A stretch of 64,000 nucleotides of DNA from Kondoa subrosea (Eukaryota), in contig BCIN01000001.1 in assembly GCA_039545335.1 (NCBI GenBank), positions 1,224,604-1,288,603 on the forward strand, read 5' to 3'. The position numbers were made by a program, and so were the translations under genes. This document shows, piece after piece, positions 1,524-32,200 of this stretch; position 1 is the first letter of the stretch; every line of letters begins with the position of its first letter. The notes under the pieces are model-generated. The model saw only the letters and a list, made by a program, of their open reading frames with translations, did no database searches and was not told the DNA's origin.

Positions 1524-4500
1524 TTAGTACACTTCGTCATCCGGCACGGCTTGCAATTGTTGCATCTCTTCAGCAGCTTGCGACCAATATTTGCTTAGAA
1601 GTCGTTCGCTGGAACAAAAGGTGGAAAGTTCAGCATATAGTGCACCGATGGAGGCTGCGTTGCGTCCAGATGGATGAGACAGGAAGAGTCTATTTGGCAG
1701 AAAGTTGAAGCCTTTGCCATCATCTTGTATCTGGACCAGCGCTGCACCGCTTGAATGGATGAACTGCGTGCTCATGCAAGGTGTCTTCCGATAGCTGTAC
1801 GAGACTTTGAGTTCTGGCGGAAAGCGATGGTCGGCTTCAATACTGTTAATCGAGCTTAGCCAAGCCTCTCCTTTTCCTTTCAGACTTACTCTATGCTAAA
1901 GTCAGAATCTCGACTTTACTGGGAGGGCAAATAGCTCACCTAGTATGTAGCCAAATTTTCTGAGTAAGCAGTGCAGATACTCCTCAGAGTCTTCATTTGG
2001 CCCGCCATCAGGCGGTAGACAAGCTAAGTCGATCACGAGGTATTGATCCAGCGGACATCGTTCGACCAGGTCTGTCGAAAGAGCGCGTCAGTTGCAGAGC
2101 GACTGCTCCCCACATTCGCTTACCTGCTACAGGTAAAGTAGCGGAGAAAACTAAACGCAAACCGTATCTATCGATCATTCTGCCGTATGTCTTGATCAAT
2201 TCGTCCACCAATTGAGATGTCGAAAGCCAATTAAGTTGAAAGTGGAAGCATCCTGCGCTTCACTCAAATGGATGTAAGTCTATCGGTAATCTACTTACCA
2301 GCTGGATTATGGACGCTTTGCAGTCGAGTCAGCAAGCATTCGGCGTGCACCGGATTGACCTACAGACTGGAGATCTATCAGCAATATACTGTACAGCAGA
2401 ACTAGTAGACCAACTCTTTGTGTAGCTGAACTACTTCTGCTCGATCACTTTTTCGCTTGTCATCTAAATCGATCTACAACAACATCAGCTTCAATCGCCT
2501 CTAGCGGTAATAACGTACCAGCAGAGAATCACTCATAGCAATGCGGTATTTTGGTTCAACTTTAACATCGCGCAGCAGCGGCAACTCAAACAGATCTGGC
2601 GAGACATGATCCGGGCTGCTTTTAGAAGTGGTTGTATCGAGATCTTCCCTTCGAAACCATGCCTTGTTGGTCTCATCTGGAACGTATTCTGCATTGAGAC
2701 TGAAGAAATGAGGACCACTATTCTAATCGTCAACAAAAAGATTCGGAATGAAAAAAAATGGAAGAGTTTACTCTACCAGAGTCTTCTGAGCCCCGGCTGC
2801 TGTGAAAAGACCTTTTTCTTGGAGTTTCTTGCCTTGGATCAAAGCTTCGTCCCGGCTGCCGACATCGATGTAGCTGAACATCATTCAGCTCAAAGAGAAT
2901 GGATTTTGCTGCATGCTCACGACTTTGTGAGCCAATCAATGAATTCCGCGCCAACAAAAGAGTTCGGATAGTTGCGTAGATGCCATCTGAGAAGGTCGTC
3001 AGCATGATACATCACGCAGCACCACGAGTCTGACCTTTTGGTCTCCATTGGCACACCGAACTGCTCACTCAAGAGAGCTTGTGCAACCTCTTCAGTCGTA
3101 CAGCTCGCCAATGTCTTGCTTGGCTTTTTCCTAGCTCCATCAAGTAGCTCCTCGTGTTGAATAGTTGCCAATTCTTCCTTGACATGTTTCGAAGGTAATC
3201 TTCGGCTGACATGAGCGCCGGTCCAAAGACCAAACGCGGTGCTTACAAATGGGGTGTGAACTTGTAGGAACTATTTCCAGATGTATTGATCGCATCTACC
3301 CAACGCTGACTCTGAAGATTTGTGAAAAGTTTGACAATCCCAGTGAGCCTAATATCTTCATCTGTAGAACCTTCGTCCAGTCCATCATTGTTGCTTTTCA
3401 CTACCGACTGTCGATCACGAAAGGGGCAAGGTATGATCCTGATCAAAAGTCAGGAAGAAAACGAATGGGAAGGGCAAGCGTACATGAACCGCGCTCGGAT
3501 GTAATGAAGGCCATCTTTCAGCTTAGTGAGTTGTTGAGAGCCAGTGATGGCGCCATCTATGTACGGGAAGTCAAGGCAGTCCTCATCCCTGCGTACGGTT
3601 GTCAGCAATCCAAGGCGGGAGTAATTTGCGACATACCGGTCACTATAGAGTAGTCAGCATCATCTACGGGTAAGACATAGATCACTAACGTATAGTTGAA
3701 CGTAGTGTGCCACTCCCTAAAAGTCGTGGAGAGATCGGGACATATGACAAACTTGTGCGGATAATGATCTTTCGAGAAGTACTGCTCCCGAACGTAGACG
3801 GTGACCTGTTCTATACCTTTACTCTCTACACAAGCGTCAAAGCGGGAAAAGAAACAACGAACATCCATCTGCTGTCTGTTTGCATTGTATGCCAAACGAT
3901 GCACATGTCTAGCGTAGCACATATAGATCTGTGACAATGCATCAGTCATTGTGTTAGTGTCGTGATATTGACATGATTGACCGGCTTGCCAGCGCCAGCT
4001 GTCCAGTATAGTATCGACAGGATATCGGCCGTCGAAGCCATGTTAGGTAATCGCAATGCAGGATCTCGAGGTGCATTGATCAGCTGAAAGCCTTGTTGCA
4101 ACCGGTGGTAAATCTGCAAATGCACGTGAGCGACGAGCTTTGATACCTTAATAGTGCCTTACCATTTCTCGCAAACAAGCTGCTACTTGATGCTCTTGCT
4201 TCTCGTAAGCTCTCACAAAGAGCGTGGCTGTAGCTGCGGTGACCGGCATAGAATATGTTCCTGAGCTATAACAAGACTCTAGCTCGGAGAGCGATGGACA
4301 CCAATCGGTAGTAAGAGGTAGCAAAGCAGGCGAGCACAAAGATCTGCGCATTTAGTGAGCAGGTCGCACTTGAGGAATGTGTTCTGAGACCTACTTCCAC
4401 TTGACCGATCTTTGATCGGACGGTTTCCGCCATCGCTGATGCTGGGCAAGCTTGAAGATCTTCTTACGAGACGGGTTCGAAGGATCCAAGAGGAAGCGGG

Positions 4501-7178
4501 GCTGTTTGTTCTTCTTCACTCGTGAGGTGCCGATCATCTCTTCTGGCGATGATGAGACTTCTGGAAAAGTAGTTTCATTTGAGGCTTCAATTTGGGGAAC
4601 AGGCGGTTGAGATGTATTGAGAATAGATATGGGAATAGCAGCAGGCGGTTTCGGATCTTCTGACGGTAGAGAAGTAGTATCGACTTTTGGAGAAGCGTAA
4701 GGGGATTTTGCTGCTACGAGATTAGGTTCGACTTGTTTTGATAGGTCGAGATCCGGAGCGTTCTTCGATTTGCTGGAATTTGATCCCTTGAAAATGTCGA
4801 ACCAATGACTTTGTGAGACCTTAGCTGGCGCTGGAGCAGCCATAGGAGCAGAGCTGACAGATGAAGGAGCTTTAGCTTGAGCTGAAAATCTTGCGAGAAG
4901 AGCAGGCGTAAACGGAGCCTTATTGGTTGAAGCACTGGCTGGTACTCGACGGACAGAAGACACCACAGAGGGTGTTTGTGCTGCTGAAACTTGCCGAGAA
5001 TGTGTGATCGGTAGATCATCTGACAGAGAGACTGTACTGGATATCAAAGGATCCGTGCTGACTACCGGTGACACCGATGGTACTCTAGAATGAGTTTGAG
5101 ATTGAAAATTGCGTCTGACTCCGTCCAATGTTGGCTTGTCGCGCAATCGCGAGAATGATTGTCTGGGCTGAATTTGCATCTGCTGTCTCCTGACTTTGAT
5201 AATTCCTTGTCTGTTCCCTCCACAAGCCAGGTTGTCTGCTTCCTCTCTCAATTTGCGACGCGTGTTTGCGTCCGATTCTCTGTAGTTACTTGACTGTTTG
5301 AGTAAAGGGAGACTGATCGAAGCGTTTTCGCTCTCTGCTGTGCCAAGCATTTCCACTTGAGGCATTCTGCAGCGAGTCATGAAACGATCGATGCGGAATG
5401 GCTTATCGGGCTGTCGAGAATAGAAGGCTGCGTCCAAGAATTCTGGAACTGCATAAAAGGTCTTTACTGCGCTTTCGCTTGATGTGGAATCATGGTAAAG
5501 GGGATCAAGTTCTTCTACTAGAGCCGAACCGTCTCGACTTTTTCGAGGTGGATTGAGTATGACAGAAAGGGAGTCTGGGTTTTTGTTGTTTCGACTGCCA
5601 ATGAGTAGAGGTGGGTTCTTTTTACGAATTTCCTGCTGCCAATCTTGCACAAAAGGGTTTTCAGAGGTGTAGGAGAAGATAGGTACTTCATGCAAAGGGC
5701 ATTTTGCACAACTGACGCAATCGACAGTCAAACCAAGATCAACAAATCTTTCGCTTGTTAGCCGTAGCAGGTTCTTGTCTACATGAAAGTAGCCGGTTCC
5801 AGCAGTAAGAAGTATGATGGTCATGCCGCTTCTTTGAAGATCTCGATCCTTTTCAACGGTATCAAACTTGTTACCGGTTTGTCAGAACGCCACAGCTTAC
5901 CATATAGCGCTTCTCAAATTGCTTGCTCGCTAAGTTCAACGCTTCCAGTACACAGCCTTCATGAGCTGCACTAATTCTTCCAGCCAAACCACCATCAGCT
6001 CTGGCACTGTATTCGAGCAGTACACTCTTCTGAAACCTAAGCAGCTCTTCCCGCAGCCTTTCCACAACTTTTGGTCCAGAAATACCAACTTCGAGATTGA
6101 TCAAAGCTTTGTAAACATCAAGGCATTTTCGACCCAAAGGATCGATTGTTAGACTGCTCGTGTGGTTGAGCAAAGCGATCTCATAATCTTCATAAAGAAC
6201 TCTAGAGAAGAGGATAATAGAGACTGCATGATTCGTGCCGTGAGCTTGCCAACGTCTGAAAAGTTCAGGTAAGAAGAGTTCGACCATTTTCTCGTGGAAC
6301 AGCTGGAAGAAGAAGAACTTAGGTTTTAAAGTCGCATCGATTAGAAGTGAAGATCTTGCTTACGCTGCCATCCACATCGAAATTCCAACATTCCGAAGAG
6401 ATCTGCACGAAGATATAGACTCGAGCGCTAAGACTTCGATAGACGATTTTGGTGGCAGCGGAAACGTAAGCTGAACGACGTTTCTTTCCTTTAATCCAGA
6501 TTTCTCCAACTCGTACTCTGATCCCGCTACCAGGTAGAACGAGCCTTTGACCGACCCAAATGCATTGATTGACGAGGAAAAGACTTGTTCGCAGCATATC
6601 TGCTCGACCTCTGTTGGAGTCATCGATCAGGATTCGATACAGAGATAGATTCATAGCGCACAAATACGTGTCTTTGAAGAAGATCTCCACATGAGAACCA
6701 CAGTATTTGCGAGGCAACGGACTCGGTAACTTCAGCAATGAAATATAAGCACAAAGCGACTGTGGACGTCGGGGATAGCACCTTAGTAACGAGCACCTGA
6801 TCTCTGTTGGACAAGCCAAAGGCATGCGCAACAGCCTTGTCGATGGAGATCTACCTTCAAAACATTGGTATGCTTGATTGATTAGAATGGACAATTCCCT
6901 GAACTCGCCTGCATTTGCGGCTGCCTCTCAATGAAGGCCTTGTCATAATCTGCGACACGGAAAACCAGGCCATCAGAAGCATTATCGTCTGATTTGACAG
7001 GTCCGGCAATAGGTTGCAGGCGAAGATTGCCATGCAGATCAGACCGAATAACAGAACTAGCGGCTTGCAAGTGAAGAAGGTCTCCTTCCTGACAGCCCAG
7101 AAGCGCAGCAGTCGCGGGATTCAAAATGACATCTTGAGCTGTCTGCAGGTTATCGTGCAGCCAGAGAGTGAGGTCCAT
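1524..7178 (-). CDS. IML1: Vacuolar membrane-associated protein Iml1/Sea1 (DEPDC5; GATOR1/SEACIT subunit), multi-exon
   Basis: Motifs VEIFFKDTYLGRADM, RSLSARVYIFVQISSECWNFD, ELFLPELFRRW, ILLTAGTGYFHVDKNLLRLT, SLCSPALLPLTTDW, the DEP domain RWHLRNYPNSFVGAEFIDWL, DLVHNPAGCFHFQLNW, and C-terminal FGYILDIEA...QFIHSSG. Stop at 1524. Confidence 0.93.
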
Positions 7179-29249: not shown

Positions 29250-32200
29250 ATGCCTACGCATAGCAGAGCTGTTTCTATTGATGACACTGAATATACCTCA
29301 TTGCTACGAAGTACTTCGAGACCTCCAAAGCTTCGTGATACTCTGAGAAGGACAAGCCGAAGCTTCGCCAACCTCCTGTCGGCGGCTTCAGATGCTGGAT
29401 TCGACACAGACACTCGCGGATACGATGAAGAGCTCAAGGAGGAGCTTACAGCTGAAGGATCTGGATCACGTACCTGGGCACGGTGAGTCAACGCTTTCAC
29501 TTGGCATGCAGAGATCTCACCTCGAGTTTATAGCAACTTCGAGAGTATCGATTGGTTGAATGATCAAGTCAGAGAAGACATTCGCAAACGGAAGCTACGA
29601 GCGCTCGTTGGTCTCCGTGGACGATTTACCAACACTGTCGATCGACTCAAAGGTTGGCTTGTGGTCTCTATCGTTGGCTTCTTAACCGCTTGTATCGCTT
29701 ACTGCATCATCACAAGTGAGCGATGGCTTTTCGATATCAAGGAAGGTACGTAAAGCCTCGCTTCGCTGATTTATATGGTATTGATGTCTAGCTGTCAGGG
29801 TACTGCTCGACTAATTGGCGAAAATCAAAAGGCAATTGCTGTCCTGGAGCTACAAAGGTCAAGTCATCACTCTTCGCCAGCACTTATCATCTTCATGGTT
29901 GGTCTAAAGAAGTGGAAGCGTGCTCAAATTGGAGAACCTGGTCTGAAGCCCTCAGTGGGAACAAAGCTGGTGTCGATGACGATTATTGGATCGACTATGC
30001 GGCTCTCGTGGTTCTAGCTGTGAGCGTTCACCAATTCATATAACAGCAAAGCTGATGATCTATGCTTCAGCTTATTTTCGCTACAATTAGTTCGCTTTTG
30101 ACTGTTTATCTGACAAGCTCGGAATCTGTACATTCAGCAAAAGATAGTGTTGATGCTTCTAATTCCAAGAAGGAAGAGAAGGCAATGCCCCCGCCGAGAA
30201 AAGTCATGTTCCAGGCTGCTGGATCTGGTATTCCCGAAGTCAAATCGATCCTCGGCGGCTTTGTCATCCGCGGTTACCTCGGAGCATGGACTCTGGGCGT
30301 CAAAGCTGTTGGTCTTACGCTGAGTGTAGCGTCTGGCTTGAGTTTGGGTAAAGAAGGACCGTAAGTCTCCATGAATTGTCAATATGTCTCCGCTAAAAGT
30401 GTGGATACAGCTTTGTTCATATCGCCTGCTGCGTTGGCAATTTGGTCACAAGATTCGTGCCCAAATACGATCACAATGAAGCCAAACGACGCGAAATTTT
30501 ATCAGCCGCTTGCGCTGCTGGTGTCGCTGTATCTTTTGGTGCACCTGTGGGAGGCGAGGAATAAACTCCTGTGCGATGTTTAAGCTGACCAACTGCTCTT
30601 GTAGGCGTCCTATTCAGCTTGGAAGAAACCAGTTATTACTTTCCACCAAAGACTATCATCAGATCTTTCCTCTGCGCCATCATCGCTGCACTTACATTGA
30701 AAGCACTCAATCCTTTCGGTAATGGGCAGATAGTCCTCTTCTCAGTCACCTATGACAGAGATACAGCCTTTATCGAGCTATTAGGTTTCATTTTCCTGGG
30801 TGCATTGGGAGGAGTATATGGCGCTTTGTTCTGTAAAGCCAATCTGGCTTGGGCGTCTCAAGTACGCGCAAAGACTTGGATGAAGAAGCACCCTGTTTTG
30901 GAAGTTTTCCTCATCACTTTGGTCACGGTCATGCTTTCCTTCTTCAATCCTTTCACCAGCATGGGAGGAACAGAACTTGTTGCTAGTGTATGTCAGGAGT
31001 CCTCTCTATGATCAATGGTCTTGTTTGCTCAGACCTACGGTACTTGACTGCTACAGATGTTTGAAGAGTGTCATCGGGAAAGTACAAGTCATCTTTGCAT
31101 CAAGTCATCAGCCTTGCTCTGGCCTTTGATCAGAAGTTTATCGTTGGCAATGGTTCTCAAGGCTGCTCTCACAGTAGTGACTTTCGGTATCAAGCTTGTA
31201 GGCGCTTTCCCTCTATTCTATTGTGCTAGTGCTGAATTGTGTATAGCCTGCCGGGTCAGCCTTTCGTCTTGTATAGCTAGTTCGCGCTGATCGCAATATC
31301 CAGTATCTTCATTCCCACTTTGGCAGTCGGCGCTCTGTTTGGAAGAATCGTTGGTTTATTAGTTGAATTTACCTATGAACGACATACGGACTGGAGAATC
31401 TTCGCGCAATGTGCAGCTCACACTGATCCGGATCTCATATTTGGCCAGCGTTGCATCATCCCGGGCCTCTATGCCATGGTTGGTGCTGTCTCTGCCTTAG
31501 CCGGTGTGACGTGAGTCTGATTTCTATCAGCAATTCTTGCTATCACTGAGTCTTCTCCTTCGCAGGCGGACTACAGTCTCGCTGGCAGTTATTGTATGGA
31601 AGAGCGTTGTTGTGCACATTACTGGCTGATATTATGCCTTCGCTACAGATGTTTGAGCTGACTGGATCCTTGAAGTGAGTGGTCTTGCTCAAATACAGGA
31701 CGCTGATTGACAGGCTCTTCGCGCAGCTATGTGGTAGTGAGTACTTACGGTATGCGACACGAGTAAAGCTGATCAATTGGGGCAGCCGGTAATGCTTTCT
31801 GTCTTGGTAGCCAAGACTGTTGCGGATGCCATCGAAGCTAGCTCTATATATGATCTGGTCCTGAAGTGAGTGCTTGCGCACCATAGCTCAGACTGGCTGA
31901 TTTCTACGCAGCTTCTCGCAACTGCCTTACCTCGATTCGAAGACTGAAGTTGTTCATTGCGCTCGTCCTTCCGATCTCATGGACCCTGGTGCGCCAGCTA
32001 TCTACATAGATGAAGACAACAATCTATCTTCGTTACAAGAGAAGCTTGACGAGACAGAGCGTTCAGCTCGCGCTCATGGCTTCCCTATACTCAAACCTGG
32101 ATCCGAACCGGATTCGCATTATTTAGTTGGCTATCTAGGCTTGAAAGAGCTAGCAGTCGCTCTACAAGAGAAGTCAAATCGAGGACCATACACTCTATGC

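Follow-up and report, generated by a model that had tools for sequence, protein, structure and literature searches.

Internal exons of a single nucleotide have been documented, with RNA evidence, in both plants and fungi. The APC11 gene of Arabidopsis thaliana is reported to contain an exon consisting of one A, demonstrated by cDNA sequencing and by mutated constructs fused to green fluorescent protein, and the same report describes this exon as having been missed by the original annotation (Guo & Liu 2015, PMC4674806). The one-nucleotide exon of CYP621A in Fusarium is described as supported by 18 reads from the Sequence Read Archive and as conserved across 20 orthologs (Nelson & Syed 2026, PMC12940212), and a long-read annotation of Coprinopsis cinerea is reported to list 13 one-nucleotide, 57 two-nucleotide, and 27 three-nucleotide exons (Cell Genomics 2025, PMC12230235). 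Here, we examine a junction near the 3′ end of an IML1 gene on the minus strand of a 64,000-nt stretch from Kondoa subrosea (GenBank assembly GCA_039545335.1, contig BCIN01000001.1, positions 1,224,604 to 1,288,603; hereafter the window, in which all positions below are counted). An initial annotation, made from the letters of this stretch, had placed a one-nucleotide exon at that junction and called such exons exceptionally rare. They are rare, but the stronger wording overstates the case given the published Fusarium gene and the 13 examples from C. cinerea. IML1 is accordingly no new category of exon; it would add a housekeeping signaling gene, encoding a subunit of SEACIT/GATOR1, to a short list. 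A literature search on one-base exons and on Iml1 in combination with microexons, whose scope left out most subscription journals, returned no report of the IML1 case.

It is highly likely, judging from splice signals and protein comparison, that the mature IML1 mRNA carries A1890 between G1940 and T1842. On the minus strand, the junction reads …TAC ATA CTA G(1940), a 49-nt candidate intron (1939-1891; intron 1), A(1890), a 47-nt candidate intron (1889-1843; intron 2), and T(1842) ATT GAA GCC…, exactly as the initial annotation had given it in both coordinates and bases. The upstream exon stops after codon position 1 and the downstream exon resumes at the third position of a codon, leaving a one-base gap, and both frames agree with homology right up to the junction. 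The penultimate exon, for instance, translates to …LLRKFGYIL, a gapless fit to the ortholog consensus …LL.KFGFVL. Within the 97 nt between the two exons, the pattern AG-N-GT occurs once, at 1895-1884 (CATAG-A-GTAAGT), and the donor of intron 2 that follows the lone base, GTAAGT, is a perfect intronic consensus. A1890 thus has the hallmarks of a one-nucleotide exon: a base bounded by AG and GT, complete and typical introns on either side, flanking exons of incompatible phase, and a conserved residue at the codon concerned.

The described systems share different parts of this arrangement. In APC11, as reported, a lone A likewise lies directly between AG and GT and is needed for the reading frame, and its authors make the case for intron definition, with the introns removed in sequence; we propose the same mechanism for IML1. 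The two differ in that the APC11 exon sits 333 nt into a 422-nt interval, with an upstream intron that is far longer, whereas both IML1 introns are minimal; moreover, APC11 is a plant gene with experimental proof, whereas the IML1 case comes from a fungus-type genome and is argued by comparison alone (PMC4674806). CYP621A is closer in that it is fungal and its single base is the middle of a conserved codon. As presented in that report, the argument is also shared, namely an apparent intron of about twice the usual length, AG and GT around the base, and a relative lacking introns that serves as a length marker. CYP621A, however, is a P450 with a read-supported Gly codon, whereas IML1 has an Asp codon recognized through sequence comparison without a close relative (PMC12940212). 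The C. cinerea counts show tiny exons to be a regular if rare feature of a fungus with short introns, which fits the 1-nt exon proposed here and a 5-nt exon elsewhere in the window, although it is a genome-wide long-read catalogue, unlike our single locus (PMC12230235). Stwintrons and the zero-nucleotide recursive splice sites of Drosophila, as far as they are described, resemble IML1 in that two consecutive reactions act on one stretch with abutting acceptor and donor signals. There, nothing is left between the reactions and one signal is interrupted or regenerated, whereas at IML1 the signals are complete and one base would stay. A stwintron reading was rejected, as the splice signals of each intron are intact, one base must remain, and excision of the 97 nt breaks the frame; a zero-nucleotide recursive splice site (ratchet point) was rejected because A1890 separates AG from GT.

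From its conceptual translation, the gene is IML1/DEPDC5, a SEACIT/GATOR1 subunit and TORC1 regulator. Two exon translations match the IML1 N-terminal domain above the cut-off (PF12257; E 5.5e-19 and 2.9e-26), and the DEP domain is matched in part (29.5 bits, below the cut-off of 32.7; profile positions 8-29) in a tested piece in which an intron splits the domain. The 105-amino-acid translation of the last exon retrieved 121 relatives at E <= 1e-3 (best E 3e-24), many aligned from residue 1-3. Of these relatives, 31 exceed 1300 amino acids, and tblastn of these 31 full-length orthologs tiles the locus from ~7172 to 1533. The motif YSYR in the last exon is near-invariant among orthologs, in agreement with the initial annotation, which had held that inclusion of the A yields the Iml1 C-terminal motif with YSYR. 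A sequence search of the PDB with the last exon returned yeast Iml1 as the sole match (E 0.076). A homology search among longer proteins gave no match for the 105-amino-acid last exon, and one weak match was found for a 162-amino-acid exon of the IML1 domain; the Protein Atlas returned for the latter exon unrelated bacterial clusters alone, all below threshold (best score, 0.79).

The consequences of each splicing outcome can be read directly from the sequence. With both introns removed and the A kept, the junction becomes CTA-GAT-ATT (Leu-Asp-Ile). Excision of the 97 nt as one unit produces the frameshift of the terminal domain that had been pointed out initially, with a stop after 23 residues. 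Excision of intron 1 alone leads to a stop after 1 residue, and excision of intron 2 alone, or retention of both introns, leads to a stop after 12 residues. Use of an earlier TTTAG acceptor would leave a 6-nt exon, CATAGA; this reading was considered and rejected owing to an in-frame stop after 1 residue.

Comparison with orthologs carries most of the weight. Among the 121 relatives, 72 cross the junction within a single HMMER domain, and these were aligned with MAFFT. The junction column holds Asp in 71 of the 72 and Glu in the remaining one; the Leu preceding it is retained in 64, the Glu two residues after it in 62, and insertions or deletions across model positions 82-94 are found in none. 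Seven splice models were then built from coordinates, comprising the one-base exon and six rivals designated B-G, and best-domain bits were summed over the 72 orthologs. In model B, a single 51-nt intron (1939-1889) is removed and 1888-1843 is read as coding; models C-G use other single introns, C being a 105-nt intron at 1939-1835. The one-base-exon model reached 5727 bits, followed by F (4925), E (4803), C (4767), D (4655), B (4512), and G (3219), and it was the top model for 70 of the 72 orthologs. The Asp codon split as G, A, and T over three exons, as the initial annotation had proposed, is therefore well matched by the orthologs. On these predicted translations, no canonical splicing solution other than the one-base exon gives the near-invariant motif L-D-[IV]-E-A-D without a gap. 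The 49 relatives under the spanning threshold show a similar picture, with the majority still placing …LD directly before the point at which the last exon starts.

Some of the remaining sequences carry a different signal. Five short fragments from other taxa (P0006, P0010, P0039, P0042, and P0079) have non-homologous residues right before …EAD or …IQSD, and the foreign stretch in P0079 ends in …PPQ, as would result from reading through a pyrimidine tract and CAG. These fragments hint that other lineages have an intron at the Asp position or no more than two codons away from it.

The conserved Asp also has a defined structural setting. An AlphaFold model of the orthologous C-terminal fragment P0047, computed from a 30-sequence alignment, had a mean predicted local distance difference test score (pLDDT) of 79.9 and a predicted template modeling score (pTM) of 0.76. 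The equivalent residue, Asp132, lies in a strand (129-133) immediately after a helix (115-126), and the two 10-residue blocks covering this stretch have mean pLDDT values of 96 and 87. In a fold search, this model matched yeast Iml1 as part of the SEA complex (8adl_W; E 4.4e-9 with a query TM-score of 0.63) as well as human DEPDC5 in GATOR1 entries. According to the model, loss of the Asp together with the 16-residue insertion implied by model B would break a core strand.

Intron norms were obtained from a motif-anchored sample on both strands of the window, compared with shuffles. Candidate introns of 40-59 nt numbered 33 against 3.2 expected (median 51, interquartile range 48.5-54.5), whereas the 90-99 nt bin held 1 against 1.9 expected; thus, 49 and 47 nt are typical lengths for this genome, and 97 nt is not. 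Both IML1 introns fall within the 43-59 nt class of the genome. The number of bases from the branch A to the 3′ end has its mode at 11-13 (18 of 35 introns), and the two IML1 introns have 11 and 13, respectively. The bare architecture (donor, 32-52 nt, YAG, any base, donor, 32-52 nt, YAG) occurs once on the two strands of the window. By itself, this architecture is only mildly unusual. The weight of the pattern comes from its exact placement at a one-base frame gap within a conserved motif, together with the identity of the base, an A that gives Asp.

We propose that A1890 would be a constitutive internal exon of IML1, set between two back-to-back U2-type introns that each have their own donor, branch site, and acceptor. 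Both introns would be recognized by intron definition. Their excision would most likely be successive, since the acceptor of intron 1 shares a few bases with the donor of intron 2, an overlap that would make assembly on both introns at once unlikely. Either order of removal would yield a workable intermediate. In particular, excising intron 1 first would leave the context of the intron 2 donor (…TAG-A-GTAAGT) as it was, since TAG stands at the end of the upstream exon as well as of intron 1. The resulting CTA-GAT-ATT would restore, in the C-terminal domain of Iml1, the conserved strand with the motif L-D-[IV]-E-A-D. We infer both the use of these sites by the spliceosome and the order of removal, the latter following the argument made for APC11.

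Several observations count against a one-base exon and bear on how firmly it is held. The branch-like CTAAG of intron 2 departs from CTRAY at its last base (G, not a pyrimidine), and exon position -1 of its donor is A rather than G. The bare architecture arises by chance 0.115 times per window (200 dinucleotide shuffles), the closest relative found has 58% identity to the last exon, and model F scored slightly higher for the 2 orthologs not best matched by the one-base-exon model. An open frame into the last exon also results from 12 single GT-AG introns, and hence frame restoration by itself proves nothing. The initial annotation had named other frame-restoring sites as grounds for abandoning the exon yet overlooked these 12; all of them create insertions or deletions relative to the orthologs. 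A crude homology-guided gene model, which contained several doubtful introns and was used solely to illustrate a naive predictor, picked the 51-nt intron with read-through. Finally, the 72 orthologs consist mostly of predicted proteins, which may contain annotation errors. For this reason, raw DNA loci were examined as well. A metagenome scan from a 4-sequence alignment returned only distant loci (34-46% identity) and no close relative, and in 3 of 3 the junction is one uninterrupted genomic open reading frame (ORF) reading …LD-V-E…. These three loci are intron-free length markers that are independent of gene prediction.

Among the alternatives, the single 51-nt intron of model B survives best, although we regard it as improbable. 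It would replace the Asp with Val plus 15 residues (16 in all), either as the sole product or as a minor alternative arising from tandem TAG/GAG acceptors; the same low estimate covers both versions. Its appeal is easily seen, as it keeps the frame open, has a typical intron length and a branch spacing (13 nt) within the modal range, and was the solution chosen by the simple gene model. An automatic annotator is likely to make that choice too; gene finders usually miss such exons, as had been stated initially. The ortholog data speak against it: none of the 72 has the insertion and 71 keep the Asp, its summed score is the second lowest of the seven (4512 against 5727 bits), and it is the top model for no ortholog. 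The three metagenome ORFs also lack any insertion, which would sit inside a confidently predicted strand. At the level of splice sites, its acceptor is a GAG (G at -3) two bases past a usable TAG. As established splice-site knowledge has it, a GAG acceptor after a usable TAG is disfavored, as is an AAG after skipped YAGs. The 51-nt intron would, in addition, reduce a perfect GTAAGT, a CTAAG, and a CAG at intron-like spacing to mere coincidence.

An artifact or gene decay is less probable still. Under this explanation, either the assembly lacks one base where a single phase-1 intron of 97 nt meets an exon, or the locus is an IML1 pseudogene with a truncated C-terminus. Neither intron edge is a homopolymer, and a 97-nt intron would be an outlier in this genome. 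The assembly-error version would further require an accidental mid-intron YAG-A-GTAAGT with correctly spaced branch motifs and the one base that yields Asp, for which rough hand arithmetic gives ~2e-4. Against a pseudogene, the last exon remains open for 105 codons and is conserved, as the retrieval of its 121 relatives indicates.

That another single intron restores the frame is the least probable of the three: all such paths hold an open frame into the last exon, but each puts an insertion or deletion in a motif with none among 72 orthologs, the five scored models (C-G) fall 800-2500 bits under the one-base model, several need weak donors (GTATCT, GTCGAG, or GTAAAG) or skip better upstream acceptors, introns of 105 nt and 138 nt would be too long for the intron size class of the genome, and model C, which drops Asp-Ile-Glu, skips two YAGs before its AAG acceptor.

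The one-base exon has direct consequences for annotation. An annotation of IML1 that ignores the A either truncates the C-terminal domain or gains 16 spurious residues, at the cost of a near-invariant Asp. The locus also suggests an inexpensive general test for hidden micro-exons, in which three signs are sought: an apparent intron twice as long as usual, a phase gap of one base, and a motif conserved without gaps in intron-free relatives. The features discussed here and below are collected in Table 1.

Table 1. Coordinates of the IML1 junction, of competing single introns, and of the GH3 micro-exons (positions in the window)
Feature	Position	Strand	Description
IML1/DEPDC5-type gene	1524..7178	-	Approximate span of the coding sequence; curated for the 3′ part of the model only
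Preceding intron, 52 nt	2072..2123	-	GTAAGC…CTGAC…GACAG, phase 1; joins …PVA to D-LVERCP…, matching orthologs
Penultimate coding exon, 132 nt	1940..2071	-	Final base G1940 is the first base of the Asp codon
Intron 1, 49 nt	1891..1939	-	Donor GTGAGC, branch-like CTGAC, acceptor CATAG
Proposed one-nucleotide exon	1890	-	A, middle base of the Asp codon G-A-T
Intron 2, 47 nt	1843..1889	-	Donor GTAAGT, branch-like CTAAG, acceptor AACAG
Last coding exon	1524..1842	-	T1842, completing the Asp codon, then 105 codons and stop
Other single-intron candidates	1939-1877, 1939-1871, 1939-1868, 1919-1866, 1914-1855, 1914-1843, plus paths from a donor at 1980	-	
GH3 introns	45099-45049, 45027-44971, 44965-44915	-	51, 57, and 51 nt
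GH3 micro-exon, 21 nt	45048-45028	-	Gapless fit to relatives
GH3 micro-exon, 5 nt	44970-44966	-	Gapless fit to relatives

The 3′ third of IML1 (2920-2072, minus strand) contains many introns of ~42-54 nt in a rough model, such as 2920-2874, 2771-2718, 2518-2474, and 2123-2072. Several exons in this region are under 70 nt, and the splice sites within 2410-2253 are partly uncertain.

A second case of very short exons, flagged by a motif scan, comes from a gene for a GH3 beta-glucosidase (PF00933; minus strand). Three proteins 86-93% identical to an exon of this gene have 722-795 residues and are encoded on contigs of 2397-2537 nt; as these contigs leave no room for introns, they look like transcripts. 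Enumeration of splicing solutions with up to three GT-AG introns gave 31 with an open frame, and only 1 of these 31 matches the relatives without a gap. This solution contains exons of 21 and 5 nt. From this comparison, it is very probable that the spliceosome of this genome copes with exons much too short for exonic signals. Together, the IML1 exon and the 5-nt GH3 exon suggest that short-intron fungi tolerate exons devoid of exonic splicing information, and such tolerance supports intron definition with sequential removal.

A broader proposal, which we consider unlikely though less so than any of the alternatives weighed above, is that the genome is unusually rich in ultra-short exons, given that exons of 1 and 5 nt, each between introns of ~50 nt, fall within the same 64 kb. 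In that case, the tandem TAG/GAG acceptors of IML1, separated by 2 nt, could act as a switch, with functional Iml1 as one outcome and either a premature stop or an isoform with a disrupted strand as the other. If true, the output of a TORC1 regulator would be tied to splicing fidelity, and the organism would offer a natural system for asking how the spliceosome handles exons too short for exon-borne signals.

A further candidate of this kind was seen on the plus strand at 31675-31785, where a possible 10-nt exon is flanked by introns of ~50 nt, both with a CTGAT branch motif, and stands beside a 27-nt exon; on hand reading, its frames did not close with obvious splice sites. In the length sample, the 110-119 nt bin held 6 candidates against 2.5 expected. 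The GH3 stretch (113 nt) and the 10-nt-exon candidate (111 nt) have lengths in this range, and hidden micro-exons may betray themselves as apparent introns roughly twice as long as usual.

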